A stretch of 63,867 nucleotides of DNA, the filler included. It is 10 parts of 10 records of this genome, joined end to end, with 100 filler letters (N's around TTAATTAATTAA, not from the genome) between each part and the next. Parts side by side here need not be neighbours in the genome. Positions count along the whole stretch, not along the records: positions 39,115 to 44,905 come from SRR31147125_88061; 9 more parts are not named here. The stretch is one strand, 5' to 3'. Below the pieces are notes generated by a model. It was given only the letters and a program-made list of their open reading frames with translations. It did not search any database and was not told the origin of the DNA. The position numbers and the translations under genes were made by a program. This document shows, in pieces, positions 39,115 to 44,905 of the stretch; within the stretch, counting starts at the first letter, position 1; every line of letters starts with the position of its first letter.

Positions 39115-39216
39115 GGGGTTCCGGTTAATGGTAAATCCGCCGATGGACAGGTGGCATCCGTCCTTGACATAGGTGGATATGGCATCTGACAATTTCATGA
39201 TTTTATTATTCTGCAT
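39115..39216 (-). CDS. Family I CoA-transferase subunit A, glutaconate CoA-transferase (GctA)-like (N-terminal fragment; absent from ORF track)
   Basis: MQNNKIMKLSDAISTYVKDGCHLSIGGFTINRNP resembles the GctA N-terminus (KVMTLKDAIAKYV..GD.I.LGGFT..R.P); RBS AAGGAGG. Confidence 0.75.
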
Positions 39217-39229
39217 ACATCCCTCCTTC

Positions 39230-40552
39230 CTACATCCCGAAAAAGCCGGGAAGCCAGAGCACGATTTCCGGAAAGGCCATGATAATGGCCAGGCAGAGGG
39301 TCTGGAGCCCGATAAAGGGCCAGACCGACCTGTAGATGTCGCCCATGGAAATATTGGGCGGCACCACCCCTTTCATGTAAAACAGGACAAAGCCGAAGGG
39401 CGGGGTCAGGTAGGCCATCTGCATGTTCACGATAAAAAGGATGCCGAACCAGAGGGGATCGAAGCCCAGAAGGGTGGTCAGGGGGACATAAATGGGCACG
39501 GTGATCATGATGATGGGCAGATCGTCCATGACCATGCCCAGCAGAAAAAAGCTGATCTGCATGGCAATGAGCACGGCCCAGCGGTTCAGGCCGATGGCAT
39601 CGATCAGGTCCTTGAGCAGCATGGGAAGCCCTAAGGTATTGACCACGGCGGAAAAGGCCAGGCATCCGATGATGATCCAGAGGACCATGGAGGTGAGAAA
39701 AGCGCTTTTTTCAGCCGCCTCCCGTATCACGGCCAGGGATCTGTTAAAGGATCTGGCCCGGTATATCACAATGATCATGGCCACCACAGCACCCACGGCC
39801 GCGGCCTCTGTGGGGGTGGCAAGCCCTGAAAATATGGTGCCCATGATGGAGAAAATCAGAATAAAGGGCATGGCCAGGTTCTTGACCGAGGCCATTTTTT
39901 CACCCCAGGTGGCCCGCTCTTCCACGGGGATGGGCGGGGCCAGTTTGGGGTTTTTCAGGCTGCGGATCAGGATATAGCCCATGAACAGCGTTGCCAGGAG
40001 CAGGCCCGGAATGATGCCGGCCAGAAACATCTTGCCGATGGAAAGGTTGGACAGGGAGGCATAGACGATCATGGTCACGCTGGGGGGGATAAGAAAGCCC
40101 AGGGCCCCGCCCCCTGAGATGCAGCCGATGGCAAGGGATGATTTATACCCCCGCTTGAGCATGGCAGGCAAAGCAATCAGCCCCATGGTCACCGTTGCCG
40201 CCCCCACAATCCCCACCATGGCGGCAAATATTACGCAGATGAAGACCGTACCGATGGCAAGCCCTCCGGGAATGGGCCCCAGCCATCTGTAAATCATCTC
40301 GAAAATTTCATCTGCAATACCGGACTTTTCCAGGATGCAGCCGATAAAGATAAAAAGGGGAATGGCCAGCAGAATGATACTGGTCATGTTCTCCATAATG
40401 GAGGGGGGCAGCATCTGCAGGAATCTTGGGCCGTTGATGAGGTAAAGGGAGACAATGCCCACACTGCCCAGGGTAATGGCCACAGGCGTCTTCAGGATAA
40501 AGAGGATGATCACGGCCAGAAACATGAAAACAACGATGAGAGCGGGGTTCAT
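39230..40552 (-). CDS. dctM: TRAP transporter large permease
   Basis: LLAIPLFIF, GGALGFLIPPS, GLATPTEAAA, LTPPFG. Confidence 0.93.
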   Translation of the reverse strand: MNPALIVVFMFLAVIILFILKTPVAITLGSVGIVSLYLINGPRFLQMLPPSIMENMTSIILLAIPLFIFIGCILEKSGIADEIFEMIYRWLGPIPGGLAIGTVFICVIFAAMVGIVGAATVTMGLIALPAMLKRGYKSSLAIGCISGGGALGFLIPPSVTMIVYASLSNLSIGKMFLAGIIPGLLLATLFMGYILIRSLKNPKLAPPIPVEERATWGEKMASVKNLAMPFILIFSIMGTIFSGLATPTEAAAVGAVVAMIIVIYRARSFNRSLAVIREAAEKSAFLTSMVLWIIIGCLAFSAVVNTLGLPMLLKDLIDAIGLNRWAVLIAMQISFFLLGMVMDDLPIIMITVPIYVPLTTLLGFDPLWFGILFIVNMQMAYLTPPFGFVLFYMKGVVPPNISMGDIYRSVWPFIGLQTLCLAIIMAFPEIVLWLPGFFGM

Positions 40553-41049
40553 TGGGCCCTCCTTTGTGAGAATGCCTGGATGGTCCTGAGAATGTCCGCC
40601 AGAATCTGGAGGATAAAGAAAAAAGCGCCTGCCGGGAGCATACTCTTGACCGGCCAGAGGGGCGGACCGAAAAGGGTATGGGAATGCTGGCCCGTGGCAA
40701 AGGCGTGCCAGGCGAATTTATATCCCTGCCAAAATAAAACGCAGAACATGAACAGGGCGATCAGGGAAACCAGAAGGTCGGCCATGCGCTGGAAGGTCTC
40801 CGGAAAAAACTGGTAAATCATGTCCACAGCCACATGGCCCTTTTCCAGCAGAACCCATCCCCCGGTCAGGGCGATATAGGCGGCAAAGACATAGCCGCAG
40901 ATTTCGTGAACCCAGATGGTGGGGCTTTCAAAAAAATACCGGGCAATGACTTCGTATACCATGAGAAACATGAAGGCGAAGATCAGGTAGCAGGAGGCCT
41001 TCCCCACCCTGAGGTTGATCTTTTCGATGATGCGGATAACGGTTTCCAT
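40549..41049 (-). CDS. dctQ: TRAP transporter small permease
   Basis: YEVIARYFF..PTIWVHE, HVAVD, P.WP; four TM helices. Confidence 0.9.
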   Translation of the reverse strand: METVIRIIEKINLRVGKASCYLIFAFMFLMVYEVIARYFFESPTIWVHEICGYVFAAYIALTGGWVLLEKGHVAVDMIYQFFPETFQRMADLLVSLIALFMFCVLFWQGYKFAWHAFATGQHSHTLFGPPLWPVKSMLPAGAFFFILQILADILRTIQAFSQRRAQ

Positions 41050-41160
41050 TATTTCGATCCTATATCAATGGTCCAAAATCTATGGGTGTTTACCTGCTGC
41101 CCGGGCGGCAGCAATGAACAAGGCTCCCCGGCCCCTGGGACCGGGGAGAGAACGCAGCAG

Positions 41161-42201
41161 TTAGAAGCCGTGTCCCAGCCGTTTCAAATGTTTTTTGGCA
41201 AGATCGATATACTGGGCGGAAAGGGGATCCTTGGTGAATTCCTCATCCCACATCTTAACGGCGGTCTGGGTCCATCTGGTCATGACATCTTCCGGGAACT
41301 GTATGAACTGGGCCCCCTTGGACTCCATTTTGGCGAGAACTTCCTGGTTCTCTTTTTTAAACAGGGCGACCACCTCATTGGCACATTTGGCCAGGGCTTT
41401 TTCAAATACCGCCTTAAGGTCGTCAGGCAGTTCATTCCAGCGCTCCTGGTTCATAATGACCTCACAGTTCTGGGCCCCGGAGATATAGGGTGTGGTCTGA
41501 TACTTGGCCACCTCATAGGTTTTGGCCAGAAAACTTTCGGTGTGGTTACCGGAAATTTCCGCATCAATGGTGCCCCTGGACAGGGCCACGTAGATCTCGG
41601 AAAAAGGAATGAATACCGTGGGAACGCCCATTTTCTGGAGGGTCTTGGCAATGGAGCCCGATGCACGGACCTTCATTTTTTTCAGGTCATCCCAGTTTTC
41701 GATGGGTTTTTTGGAAACAATGGTATACCCGTCCATGATCAGGGGAGCGCCGAAAAAAACATTTTTTGTGGCATAGGCATCCCTGAAGAATGCCATGACC
41801 TCATCCTGGTAGATAAAATCGATGATCTCATCCATGCCCCTGGGGTCGCCGGGCAGGGCAAAGGCTGTGGCGGCCACGGGCAGGATGCCGCCGTGGTAGC
41901 AGCTGCAGGTGGTGCCCATGTCTATGGAACCGAGGCTGACAGACTCAAAGATGCTGGGCCCCTTGACCAGGGCGCCGGAAGGCAGAACCTGGATAGCGAT
42001 CCGGCCATTGCTCTCCTTTTTCAACTCCCTGGCCATCTGGTTCACGGCCACAGAGATGGGGTGGTTCAAGGAGAACATATTCTGCATGGTAAATCTGTAG
42101 CTTTTTCCGGCATGGGCCCCTAAAGGCTGAATACCCAAGAGGATCAGTAACGACAGACTTAAAACAAAGACGAACCGCAGTGAAACAATACGTTTTATCA
42201 T
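41161..42201 (-). CDS. dctP: TRAP substrate-binding protein
   Basis: Signal peptide, SNGRIAI, KKPI...DDLK.MKVR (conserved carboxylate-binding Arg), EIYVALSRGTIDA. Confidence 0.9.
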   Translation of the reverse strand: MIKRIVSLRFVFVLSLSLLILLGIQPLGAHAGKSYRFTMQNMFSLNHPISVAVNQMARELKKESNGRIAIQVLPSGALVKGPSIFESVSLGSIDMGTTCSCYHGGILPVAATAFALPGDPRGMDEIIDFIYQDEVMAFFRDAYATKNVFFGAPLIMDGYTIVSKKPIENWDDLKKMKVRASGSIAKTLQKMGVPTVFIPFSEIYVALSRGTIDAEISGNHTESFLAKTYEVAKYQTTPYISGAQNCEVIMNQERWNELPDDLKAVFEKALAKCANEVVALFKKENQEVLAKMESKGAQFIQFPEDVMTRWTQTAVKMWDEEFTKDPLSAQYIDLAKKHLKRLGHGF

Positions 42202-42361
42202 GGTTTTGTGTTCTCCCAATAATTAGTGGTTAGGAATTGATGTCGCTTTTGCCGTATATCTTTATGTATTCACAGATCCACAGACGCCTTGCAGTGCTCT
42301 CCTCCTTTCCCGGCTGGAATTTTCGGGTTAGTTTTATATATATGCAACAAACGCTAATAAA

Positions 42362-42377
42362 TGCAAATGGCATGCCA
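42362..42377 (-). promoter_or_regulatory. Sigma-54 promoter for the dctPQM / CoA-transferase operon
   Basis: Minus strand TGGCATGCCATTTGCA, exact GG-N10-GC spacing. Confidence 0.8.
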
Positions 42378-42475
42378 TTTCCATCCTACCCCTGTCCCTC
42401 CCTGGTAATCCTGAACCCGCCCAAAGATGAACAGGAAATACCCCCATGGACATCCGGTGGGCAGATGGCAATTAA

Positions 42476-42603
42476 TGCAAAACAGCATAGTGCCCCACAG
42501 GAGGCCGCCCAGGAAAAACCGCTGTCATTCCGGCGGGTTAAACAGGCAAAACATATCTATCATAAGGATAAATGCAGACCTGCATATTCATGCAATTTTG
42601 CAT
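42476..42603. promoter_or_regulatory. Candidate enhancer-binding-protein UAS boxes
   Basis: ATGCAAAACAGCAT (42476-42489) and ATGCAATTTTGCAT (42590-42603) between two divergent sigma-54 promoters. Confidence 0.55.
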
Positions 42604-42714
42604 TGAATCGATGCGGGACAGACAGTGATACCAAAAAGGCTGCAGGAAAACATGGCCCTGCCTTGCCCTGTATTATAAAGGGTTGCGGACAAAATGGGCC
42701 AGGTCCCGGGAGAA

Positions 42715-42730
42715 TGGCACAGGCTTTGCT
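42715..42730 (+). promoter_or_regulatory. Sigma-54 promoter for the gabT-AOR operon
   Basis: TGGCACAGGCTTTGCT, near-consensus -24/-12 element. Confidence 0.85.
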
Positions 42731-42868
42731 ATGCTCTATAATACGTATCTTTATGAATTCAAAATCTGCAGACCCCCCTACGACCTATCCAGGTCATTGC
42801 CAACGAACCCTTAAACGACAGGGCACCTCTAATATTGAGATGGCCTGCATTCAATGGAGAAGAGCGCT

Positions 42869-44170
42869 ATGGTTTCATCCGAAAATCTCAGACAGATGCG
42901 TCAGACCCACGTGGCCCAAGGCCCGGCCAATATTACCCAGGCAATCATCCAGAAGGCGGCCGGTGCAATTATGATTGATGTGGAAGGCAAAGAACTCATT
43001 GATTTTGCCGGCGGGATCGGCGTCAACAACGTAGGACATGCCCATCCCAAGGTGGTCCAGGCCATTAAGGACCAGGCAGACCGGTTTGTCCATACCTGCT
43101 TTCACGTAAGTATGTACGATTCATATATCGAGCTTGCAGCCCGGCTCAACGAACTGGCACCGGGAGACTTTGCCAAAAAGACCATGTTTGCCAATTCCGG
43201 GGCGGAAGCCGTGGAAAATGCCGTAAAAGTGGCCAGGTACGCCACCAAACGCCCGGCAATCATCGCCTTTGAAAACGGATTTCACGGCCGGACCCTGCTG
43301 ACCATGTCCCTGACCAGCAAGATCAAGCCATATAAACTGGGGTTCGGCCCCTTTGCCCCGGAAACCTACAGAATCCCCTATCCCTACTGCTACCGCTGTC
43401 CTTTTGGTGCCAAACACCCGGACTGCGGCATTGCCTGCGCCGACTACCTGGAATCCTTTTTCATTTCCTATGTGGACCCCGAATCCACGGCAGCCGTCAT
43501 TGCAGAGCCCATCCAGGGGGAAGGCGGGTTCGTCACCCCGCCGGCGGAATACTTTCCCAAGCTGGCAGAAATCTGTAAGAAATACGGCATCCTCCTCATC
43601 ATTGACGAGGTCCAGTCCGGGGCCGGCCGGACCGGCAAATTCCTGGCCATAGAACATTGGGGCATTGAGCCTGACATCATCACCCAGGCCAAGAGCCTGG
43701 CCGGCGGCATGCCCCTGAGCGCGGTCACGGGCCGGGCGGAACTGATGGACGCCCCCCATGTGGGCGGCCTGGGCGGCACCTACAGCGGCAATCCCGTCTC
43801 CTGCCAGGCCGCACTGGCCGTGCTGGAAATCCTGTTTGAGGACAAACTCCTGGACCGCTCACGACAGCTGGGAAAAATCCTTAAACAACGCTTTGAAGAA
43901 CTCCGGGAAAAATACGAGATCATCGGTGATGTCCGGGGCAAGGGCCCCATGCTGGCCCTGGAACTGGTCAATGACCGGGAAACCAAGGAGCCGGCCACCG
44001 AAGCTGCAGGCAAACTGACCCAGCTATGCTATGAAAAAGGGCTGGTCCTGCTCTCCTGCGGCAACTACGGCAATGTGATCCGGACCCTGATGCCCCTTGT
44101 GATCACGGACGCGCAGCTGGATCGCGGGCTTTCCATCCTGGAAGAAAGCCTGGCCGAACTGAATGCCTAA
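42869..44170 (+). CDS. gabT: 4-aminobutyrate/5-aminovalerate aminotransferase (class III PLP)
   Basis: IDFAGGIGV.N.GH, NSGAEAVENAVK, FHGRT, EPIQGEGGF, DEVQSG, AKSLAGG, GGLGGTYSGNP. Confidence 0.92.
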   Translation: MVSSENLRQMRQTHVAQGPANITQAIIQKAAGAIMIDVEGKELIDFAGGIGVNNVGHAHPKVVQAIKDQADRFVHTCFHVSMYDSYIELAARLNELAPGDFAKKTMFANSGAEAVENAVKVARYATKRPAIIAFENGFHGRTLLTMSLTSKIKPYKLGFGPFAPETYRIPYPYCYRCPFGAKHPDCGIACADYLESFFISYVDPESTAAVIAEPIQGEGGFVTPPAEYFPKLAEICKKYGILLIIDEVQSGAGRTGKFLAIEHWGIEPDIITQAKSLAGGMPLSAVTGRAELMDAPHVGGLGGTYSGNPVSCQAALAVLEILFEDKLLDRSRQLGKILKQRFEELREKYEIIGDVRGKGPMLALELVNDRETKEPATEAAGKLTQLCYEKGLVLLSCGNYGNVIRTLMPLVITDAQLDRGLSILEESLAELNA

Positions 44171-44237
44171 CCCCCCCGATGCCCGGCGCCATGGGGAGCC
44201 GGGCATATCAACTTACGCCCCGGTTCAAGGAACATCT

Positions 44238-44905
44238 ATGAAAGGATTTTTTCACCGCCTGGCCCTCATTGATCTGACCCTTCAAAAGGTGGACGTTGTA
44301 CCGATCGACCCTGCCCTTGCCCTGGCATATCTGGGGGGCAAGGGCCTGGGAACCCATCTGCTTCTGGAACATACCCCTGCCCAGGCCGACCCCTTGTCGC
44401 CGGAAAATTGCATGATCATCGGCACAGGCCCTGTCACGGACAGCCGGATACGGGGAAGCTGCAGGTTTGGGCTCTTTTCCAAATCCCCCTGACCGGATCT
44501 TACGCCGAATCCTATTCCGGGGGGAAGGTGGCCATTGCCATCAGCCGCACCGGATATGATTTCATCCTGCTCAAGGGGGCGTCGACCGGGCCGGTATGGC
44601 TGGAGATCTCTGACCGGGACATCATTTTCCACGATGCCCGGGCCCTATGGGGCAGGGATACCCACGAGACCGAGGAGACGGTCAGGGCAAGGTGCGGGCA
44701 GAAGGGCTGCGGCGCTCTTGTCATCGGGCCGGCCGGCGAGAATCTGGTAAGGTTTGCCGTGGTCGGGCACACCCATTGGCGGACTCCCGGGCAGACCGGC
44801 ATGGGCGCGGTCATGGGGGCCAAAAGGATCAAGGCCCTGGTCTTCCACGGAGAAACCCGACAAAGGTTCCATGCCCCCGAAGCCATGGCCGCCTATGCAA
44901 AAAAA
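44238..44905 (+). CDS. Aldehyde:ferredoxin oxidoreductase (W/Mo AOR family), N-terminal part; frameshift near 44487
   Basis: YLGGKGLG, DPLSPEN, KSP(L)TG.YAESYSGG, IGPAGENLV, GMGAVMGAK.IKA. Confidence 0.88.

Follow-up and report, generated by a model that had tools for sequence, protein, structure and literature searches.

A candidate sigma-54-controlled route for omega-amino acid oxidation, probably of 5-aminovalerate, through an aldehyde:ferredoxin oxidoreductase in Desulfobacterales-type bacteria

The fermentation and decarboxylation of amino acids commonly yield 5-aminovalerate and 4-aminobutyrate (GABA), whose oxidation by strict anaerobes is poorly mapped to genes. The matter is raised by a locus at positions 39115-44905 of a 63,867-base stretch of DNA, referred to here as the window, in which the genes of a tripartite ATP-independent periplasmic (TRAP) transporter, dctPQM, and the beginning of a GctA-like CoA-transferase gene lie divergent from gabT, encoding an omega-aminotransferase, and from a gene of the aldehyde:ferredoxin oxidoreductase (AOR) family. 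What substrate would such a set of genes serve, and by which route? The answer that we consider probable is that the locus forms the central part of a gene island for the catabolism of an omega-amino acid, 5-aminovalerate being the likeliest, in an anaerobe of the Desulfobacterales type, that is, a bacterium of sulfate-reducing type. An original prediction, made from the letters of the window, had proposed that 5-aminovalerate is converted to glutaryl-CoA by way of the AOR, and this interpretation appears to be supported by comparison with related loci. The arrangement that it had described, two divergent arms each headed by a sigma-54 promoter, is indeed in place, as follows.

39198..39115, minus strand: GctA-like CoA-transferase subunit A, first 28 codons, running off the contig end
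40552..39230, minus strand: dctM, TRAP large permease, 440 amino acids (Pfam DctM 292.4 bits; TIGR00786 337 bits, cut-off 268)
41049..40549, minus strand: dctQ, TRAP small permease, 166 amino acids (Pfam DctQ 99.8 bits)
42219..41161, minus strand: dctP, TRAP solute-binding protein, 352 amino acids from a TTG start (Pfam DctP 141.9 bits)
42363-42377, minus strand: sigma-54 -24/-12 element TGGCATGCCATTTGC, TGGCAT-N5-TTGC, one mismatch, 144 nt upstream of dctP
42572-42603, no strand: two adjacent perfect 14-bp palindromes ATGCAGACCTGCAT and ATGCAATTTTGCAT, ATGCA-N4-TGCAT, between both promoters
42715-42729, plus strand: sigma-54 -24/-12 element TGGCACAGGCTTTGC, TGGCAC-N5-TTGC, 125 nt upstream of gabT
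42854..44170, plus strand: gabT/davT-type class III omega-aminotransferase, 438 amino acids (Aminotran_3 448 bits; TIGR00700 568.2 bits, cut-off 506.65)
44238..44905, plus strand: AOR-family tungsten-type aldehyde:ferredoxin oxidoreductase, 5' third (N-terminal domain), AFOR_N in two frames

The window is a composite of ten unrelated contigs, with GC contents from 0.37 to 0.57, joined by N44-TTAATTAATTAA-N44 spacers, and positions 39115-44905 are exactly one of these contigs (5,791 bp, GC 0.547), both end genes of which, the gctA-like gene and that of the AOR, are truncated by its ends. The contigs flanking it in the window are unrelated DNA (GC 0.369 and 0.533), the one after 44905 opening with a CA/CATGTA microsatellite and having a pattern of open reading frames (ORFs) unlike that of its bacterial neighbours. 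Two plus-strand ORFs, 42237-42974 and 40834-42123, were treated as spurious, since they have no family match or lie antisense to the TRAP genes. Genomic context was read solely from related loci elsewhere. These loci number 56, four from metagenomes and 52 from genomes, and comprise up to 10 kb on each side, many being truncated; the 52 genome loci were found with an alignment of 23 DctP sequences, a scan with a single DctP having given none.

Among the 56 loci, gene order and orientation vary widely from genus to genus, and yet the same genes remain linked: GabT is encoded in 45, AOR in 38, GctA in 37, a molybdopterin aldehyde oxidoreductase in two and, in 36, a sigma-54 activator (enhancer-binding protein, EBP) of PAS-AAA+-HTH domain order, which is absent from the window contig. 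The orthologues of the window's DctP are sharply bounded, with identities of 57-88% before the next drop to 43%, and they include proteins from Desulfobacula toluolica, Desulfocicer vacuolatum, Desulforhopalus singaporensis, Desulfopila, Desulfocastanea and Syntrophales. In L001, a locus whose DctP is 74% identical to that of the window, the activator gene is convergent with AOR-gabT, and divergent from these run dctPQM, a MoaD-like ORF, gctA, gctB and a gene of the MBL fold. The synteny that the original prediction had suggested looking for is thus conserved, in that GabT, an aldehyde oxidoreductase (AOR or the molybdopterin enzyme) and the glutaconate-type CoA-transferase (Gct) occur together in 20 of the 23 loci that carry the window's type of DctP and extend over 15 kb or more. 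In D. singaporensis and in a Desulforhopalus metagenome-assembled genome (MAG), which make up two of the three exceptions, activator, gabT and AOR lie some 16-20 kb away on the same contig, and the third, L030 from Syntrophales, has gabT and two distant AOR paralogues, with Rnf genes after them. In Desulfotignum, a second type of DctP, about 40% identical to the first, is linked to enzymes that are closely orthologous to these.

The gene for the enzyme which would oxidise the semialdehyde is interrupted in the window contig. The AFOR_N profile is matched in two frames, by its positions 2-79 with 69.2 bits and 79-198 with 134.6 bits (cut-off 29.8), the frames meeting at position 79, where a -1 frameshift arises from a base missing in the C-run at 44485-44489, within a conserved 'SKSPLTG' stretch. 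An independently assembled contig of 8,082 nt, at depth 90, from a sequencing run in which the window contig also occurs and which is possibly its source, spans the whole stretch and extends 2,289 nt beyond 44905; it differs from the window contig by one base change (A>G at 44211) and by two added C's, behind 44170 and behind 44484, the latter restoring the AOR frame. Because this contig has the missing C, the frameshift most likely arose in assembly, with the gene itself intact, and the possibility of a pseudogene was rejected on the same ground. The AFOR_C domains and the [4Fe-4S] cysteines lie beyond the end of the window contig and were checked in orthologues from the related loci, where all 36 full-length AORs (36/36) keep C288/C291/C295/C494, Y312, E313, H448 and T243 in 1AOR numbering; the roles of these residues were taken in part from PMC12096430. 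With solved AORs, the L001 enzyme aligns at E values of 1e-107 to 3e-109.

Between the end of gabT and the start of the AOR gene, at 44179-44206, there is a perfect 9-bp inverted repeat, ATGCCCGGC / GCCGGGCAT, with a 10-nt loop. It is followed by no T-run and is flanked by differences from the independent assembly (behind 44170; 44211), and is perhaps a hairpin of the mRNA, not a terminator.

An NAD(P)-dependent gabD or davD gene in the same operon is one of the things that the original prediction had named as telling against it, and none occurs in the cluster. An aldehyde dehydrogenase of this kind (Aldedh) was found in just one of the 56 loci, L019, by scanning 73 representative ORFs of the neighbourhoods with Pfam, these being of at least 130 amino acids and within 2.5 kb of the cluster span, together with tblastn using the L019 Aldedh; in that locus it adjoins a paralogous aminotransferase, 33% identical. 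In L023, moreover, the usual place of the AOR between activator and gabT is taken by a molybdopterin aldehyde oxidoreductase (NF045668, 1523 bits, cut-off 1100), and fragments of such an enzyme also lie beside gabT in L020, which keeps its AOR as well, and in L053.

These observations bear on the proposal that the AOR detoxifies aldehydes or reduces acids in general, in a separate pathway, and happens to stand beside gabT, for which it may be said that substrate ranges in the AOR family are broad, according to PMC12096430. Such a bystander would hardly be expected to keep its adjacency to gabT through so much reshuffling of gene order in the 38 loci that have it, nor to be swapped at the same place for a different aldehyde oxidoreductase in L023, nor to share a single sigma-54 promoter with gabT, and we regard this proposal as highly improbable. 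The electron acceptor of the AOR is assumed to be ferredoxin, from the family to which the enzyme belongs and, weakly, from the Rnf genes found 3' of gabT in L030.

A second, distant pair of aminotransferase and AOR genes (33% and 29-30% identical, respectively) occurs near the first in the Desulforhopalus genomes, at L057:13964-16875 (genome G001) and L019:13630-18554, in the latter with the Aldedh gene beside it, and may be a module for another amine.

How the two arms would be controlled can be seen from the region between them. The element upstream of gabT is the sole perfect TGGCAC-N5-TTGC in the whole window, and matches with up to two mismatches number 59 against 60.4 expected. Since this loose count is at chance level, the sigma-54 calls rest on position and conservation. 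In 812,744 bp of related loci plus the contig there are 105 elements with at most one mismatch, 25 of them just upstream of gabT, 25 of dctP and four of gctA; a further 44 have no called gene downstream, in some cases through ORF calls on the wrong strand. The palindromes between the promoters are likewise a feature of the intergenic region, as TGCA-N4-TGCA is present in 26 of 30 gabT-dctP intergenic regions, and its density there is 37 copies in 19.9 kb, set against 58 (these 37 included) in all 846 kb of the loci. The pair at 42572-42603 is a candidate enhancer, or upstream activating sequence, for the PAS-AAA+-HTH activator, and such a layout would be expected if a single enhancer-binding protein acted on both of the divergent sigma-54 promoters. 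Among NCBIfam families, the activator scores best against PrdR, with 439 bits, below the cut-off of 795.

With both arms apparently under one control, it may be asked what the transporter brings in. All three TRAP components, that is, the binding protein and the small and large permeases, score above the Pfam cut-offs, and an ATG lies six codons inside the TTG start of dctP, ahead of a signal-peptide-like stretch. A structure model of DctP (predicted local distance difference test score, pLDDT, 83.9) has the TRAP binding-protein fold, with a template-modelling (TM) score of 0.82 to 2ZZV. The closest solved structures are those of proteins for lactate, pyruvate or alpha-keto acids (alpha-ketovalerate), at 21-26% identity, and a binder of C4-dicarboxylates comes at rank 22 with 17% identity; these relatives are distant, at 17-26% identity among the matches listed, the best being 26%, and so give a weak hint at a monocarboxylate ligand. 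Three arginine residues, R127, R185 and R215, are kept in both types of DctP and may include the conserved arginine by which TRAP binding proteins hold the carboxylate of their ligand. Gene order also bears on the ligand. In the Desulfovermiculus-type loci, which have the second type of DctP, the genes for activator, DctPQM, AOR, GabT and glutamate dehydrogenase all run in one direction and Gct is missing, and in the Syntrophales loci TRAP is co-operonic with gabT. Both arrangements point to uptake of an amino acid, which may be 5-aminovalerate, GABA or both.

A different role for the transporter would follow if DctPQM and GctAB formed a unit for the uptake and activation of glutarate, a C5-dicarboxylate, with the adjacent gabT-AOR receiving 5-aminovalerate through some other carrier. 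The Desulfobulbales-type loci would also fit this, in that an IclR-type regulator precedes gctAB-dctPQM with etf and gcd genes, no sigma-54 element (at most one mismatch) precedes dctP, and EBP-gabT-AOR is a separate unit; in D. singaporensis the two units are about 16 kb apart. In the window and in 24 other loci, however, the sigma-54 element of dctP faces that of gabT across the shared palindromes, and the codirectional dctPQM genes of the Desulfovermiculus-type and Syntrophales loci accompany AOR and/or gabT where there is no Gct to serve. In the clusters, no gene for another transporter was seen, and the closest solved relatives of DctP bind monocarboxylates, although this last is a weak point. 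A dedicated glutarate importer appears, on balance, quite unlikely, and uptake of the amino acid itself remains the preferred role for DctPQM.

Between dctM and gctA, some of the related loci have a small ORF ending in ...ITGG (L001:13040-13336, L002:6160-6522 and L007:12994-13305), which is MoaD/SAMP-like but below the cut-off at 28-32 bits and may have a link to pterin-cofactor supply for the AOR. The window is without this ORF.

On the other side of the oxidation step, the gctA-like fragment opens with an ATG at 39198, 31 nt downstream of dctM. Its 28 codons give 17.1 bits (E value 0.0037) against Pfam CoA_trans, below the 23-bit cut-off, and are identical at 19 of 28 positions (68%) to residues 9-36 of the full-length GctA that occupies the same position in L001. 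Since GctA and GctB of L001 match the glutaconate CoA-transferase of Acidaminococcus fermentans (PDB 1POI) at E values of 1.6e-64 and 4.6e-68, the GctA-like assignment of the original prediction is probably right. The catalytic Glu, that of the E-S/T-G motif, aligns between GctB of L001 and 1POI_B.

The genes linked to the cluster bear on whether its substrate is a C5 or a C4 compound. The glutaryl-CoA dehydrogenase gene for which the original prediction had advised a search is linked in several loci, together with genes for EtfAB, GcdA/GcdB, crotonase and thiolase. In particular, five of the nine acyl-CoA dehydrogenases (Acd) tested score above the 470-bit cut-off of NF045552, the non-decarboxylating glutaryl-CoA dehydrogenase family, and two more, at 439-442 bits, have NF045552 as their top family and PDB 3MPI as their best structure. 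A linked GcdA matches PDB 3GF3 with an E value of 4e-215, and a linked GcdB, the beta subunit of the Na+-pumping glutaconyl-CoA decarboxylase, scores 503 bits against TIGR01109 (cut-off 191). Nearly the whole path lies within 20 kb in L012. At least one of Acd, GcdA and GcdB is encoded in 11 of the 34 loci with the window's type of DctP, and in all five genomes considered that have no linked copies (5/5) one Acd above the cut-off and one GcdA are encoded elsewhere, near each other. In L051, the place of GctAB is occupied by a family III CoA-transferase, the best family of which is succinate--glutarate CoA-transferase (416 bits, below the cut-off of 750). Because the genes for glutaryl-CoA dehydrogenase and glutaconyl-CoA decarboxylase are linked, the C5 route, from 5-aminovalerate, is favoured over one from GABA.

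Other substrates were considered and set aside. 2-Aminoadipate was rejected, as it would leave AOR and GctAB with no role and the relevant transaminase model is matched with 400 bits against a cut-off of 650. A beta-alanine/malonate route is unlikely, since the carboxyltransferase closely resembles GcdA and the dehydrogenase belongs to the glutaryl-CoA type. One match to GcdA, at G007:C1:2540184-2541926, contains a single in-frame TAG.

Several points weigh against the 5-aminovalerate reading, in addition to the Desulfobulbales-type arrangement described above. The window itself contributes just 28 codons of gctA and one third of the AOR gene. The L001 AOR is nearer to AOR proper (369 bits to 9MQX, 364 to 1AOR) than to the archaeal formaldehyde ferredoxin oxidoreductase (FOR; 307 bits to 1B25). 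None of Acd, GcdA and GcdB is encoded in the 22 loci with the second type of DctP (0/22), and the two acyl-CoA dehydrogenases next to the Desulfotignum clusters do not belong to the glutaryl-CoA type (224-231 bits, cut-off 470). In L001, L032, L007 and L008, the loci closest to that of the window, no glutaryl-CoA genes occur within 10 kb, and in L032 fumarate reductase/fumarase genes adjoin the activator, as would suit a succinate route. Finally, GabT passes the curated GABA-transaminase model TIGR00700, an NCBIfam equivalog, and carries that label, and its sequence cannot tell GABA from 5-aminovalerate. GabT-type enzymes commonly accept both.

An alternative is a GABA route, in which GabT would give succinate semialdehyde, the AOR succinate and reduced ferredoxin, and GctAB succinyl-CoA, with 5-aminovalerate at most a side substrate. 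The equivalog match, the absence of C5 markers from the 22 loci just mentioned and the succinate-handling genes beside the activator in L032 would all suit it, and the closest characterised regulator is GabR of Bacillus thuringiensis, which responds to GABA and succinic semialdehyde (PMC4279683). What such a route does not explain is the recurrent linkage of glutaryl-CoA dehydrogenase, GcdA/GcdB and Etf, which have no role in a C4 pathway, nor the replacement CoA-transferase of L051, which is most like a succinate--glutarate CoA-transferase. The CoA-transferase of the cluster is itself of the glutaconate/glutarate type, and glutaconate CoA-transferase is not known to use C4 dicarboxylates. A route confined in this way to GABA appears unlikely, and 5-aminovalerate is retained as the preferred substrate.

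The pathway that we infer for 5-aminovalerate, including its substrates, the TRAP ligand, the ferredoxin acceptor and the effector of the activator, would run as follows. The activator, encoded next to the AOR in relatives, would bind the ATGCA-N4-TGCAT palindromes and fire both divergent sigma-54 promoters, and DctPQM would bring in the amino acid. GabT would then transfer the amino group to 2-oxoglutarate, yielding glutarate semialdehyde, while the linked glutamate dehydrogenase of many relatives (genes for a large form are present in 10 loci and for a small form in five) would regenerate the 2-oxoglutarate acceptor. The AOR-family enzyme would oxidise glutarate semialdehyde to glutarate with reduction of ferredoxin, dispensing with an NAD(P)-dependent DavD/GabD, and GctAB would transfer CoA to give glutaryl-CoA. 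Onward conversion to acetyl-CoA would require the non-decarboxylating glutaryl-CoA dehydrogenase with EtfAB, the Na+-pumping glutaconyl-CoA decarboxylase, crotonase and thiolase, the genes for which are linked in some relatives and lie elsewhere in the genome in others.

Some further neighbours deserve mention. A conserved, cysteine-containing protein of the TIGR04076 family, of about 95-106 amino acids (43-46 bits, cut-off 33), is encoded at L010:7823-8140, L012:16304-16621, L028:15010-15309, L030:13204-13488 and L017:7543-7821, where its gene separates gabT either from the activator gene or from dctM. Genes for a 2-oxoacid:ferredoxin oxidoreductase adjoin gctAB in L016 (e.g. L016:213-2640) and L017 (alpha and beta/gamma), and in L011 the beta/gamma genes only stand beside the activator; the alpha subunit matches PRK08659 with 388 bits, below the cut-off of 411. 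This enzyme may serve to recycle 2-oxoglutarate, giving succinyl-CoA, which could act as the CoA donor. Genes of the MTTB and Dimeth_PyL families (trimethylamine/dimethylamine methyltransferases) and for a BCCT transporter lie downstream of the cluster in two 'Desulfobacterium' MAGs (L013:16010-20014, L024:13796-20014), one MTTB reading frame being split in two, as by a pyrrolysine codon or a frameshift. A proline racemase gene and an adenine-deaminase-like gene downstream in L041 were set aside, as they showed no recurrent link.

What would such a route mean for the organisms that have it? If it is correct, the AOR would capture low-potential electrons that DavD or GabD would lose to NAD(P), and this ferredoxin-yielding step would change the energy yield of the pathway; sulfate reducers would, moreover, be directly linked through Stickland waste to the amino-acid-fermenting clostridia of sediments and guts. 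The cluster also proposes a physiological substrate for one clade of bacterial AORs, in a family most of whose members have no assigned one, and a new class of ligand for TRAP binding proteins. Taken at its widest, the locus family could represent an undescribed, energy-saving respiration of 5-aminovalerate across the Desulfobacterota, with a new TRAP specificity, a dedicated AOR, Na+-pumping decarboxylation and a single PAS sigma-54 switch acting on a shared palindrome, a proposal that we put forward tentatively, as one that could well fall either way. The cluster is conserved across the Desulfobacterota, and the prediction is testable, with no need for new isolation, in carriers already in culture, among them Desulfocicer vacuolatum DSM 3385 (L014), Desulforhopalus singaporensis DSM 12130, Desulfopila sp. 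IMCC35006 (L028) and, by DctP orthology, Desulfobacula toluolica.

Known routes provide a frame for these proposals. In aerobes, 5-aminovalerate and GABA are degraded by DavT/DavD in Pseudomonas putida and by GabT/GabD in Escherichia coli, with subsequent activation of glutarate and action of GcdH. The chemistry is the same as that proposed here, with an omega-aminotransferase, oxidation of the semialdehyde to the dicarboxylate, CoA activation and dehydrogenation of glutaryl-CoA. What differs in the present loci is that an AOR-family or molybdenum aldehyde oxidoreductase stands in for the NAD(P)-dependent aldehyde dehydrogenase, which is seen in only one of the 56, and uptake is by TRAP, activation by GctAB, and the later steps by a non-decarboxylating glutaryl-CoA dehydrogenase with a Na+-pumping decarboxylase. 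The same intermediates as those proposed here are reportedly found in a syntrophic coculture studied by Roeder and Schink in 2009, where cadaverine is said to be converted to 5-aminovalerate, glutarate and glutaryl-CoA in turn. Neither that route nor the 5-aminovalerate fermentation of Clostridium viride is known to have been assigned to these genes or to an enzyme of the AOR family. The GctAB of A. fermentans resembles that of L001 in its two subunits and in the aligned catalytic Glu of the beta subunit, but it serves glutamate fermentation via 2-hydroxyglutarate, whereas here it is placed after a module for the deamination of an amino acid.

A literature search, with subscription journals outside its coverage and spellings of the AOR name with a colon missed, returned no paper on gabT with AOR, none on AOR-dependent oxidation of 5-aminovalerate or GABA in bacteria and none on this gene set. 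In this respect, the statement of the original prediction that the enzyme combination is uncharacterised fits this outcome as regards the genes, but it needs qualifying for the chemistry. In PMC12096430, the archaeal FOR of Pyrococcus furiosus (PDB 1B25/1B4N) is described as having its lowest Km for glutaric dialdehyde and as having been crystallised with glutarate, and glutaric semialdehyde is proposed as its natural substrate; because of this proposal, the idea that an AOR-family enzyme oxidises glutaric semialdehyde has a precedent. The cofactor ligands and second-shell residues of the family are kept in the orthologues described here, although FOR has no assigned gene context with gabT, TRAP or Gct, and the L001 enzyme is the closer to AOR proper. 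It is the link between TRAP and GctAB, together with the C5 markers, that the locus family adds.

With regard to regulation, the gab cluster of B. thuringiensis is controlled by the PAS-AAA+-HTH sigma-54 activator GabR, according to PMC4279683, and the likeness extends to the domain order of the L001 EBP, to the sigma-54 promoter before gabT and to an upstream repeat as binding site. The GabR cluster differs in having GabD and a single promoter, whereas two divergent sigma-54 promoters here share the ATGCA-N4-TGCAT palindromes. Lastly, anaerobic use of 5-aminovalerate would be common to these loci and to Clostridium viride, which, according to PMC8473912, ferments it via 5-hydroxyvalerate. In C. 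viride the semialdehyde is reduced, giving the hydroxy acid, where the AOR-family enzyme of the present cluster would oxidise it to glutarate.

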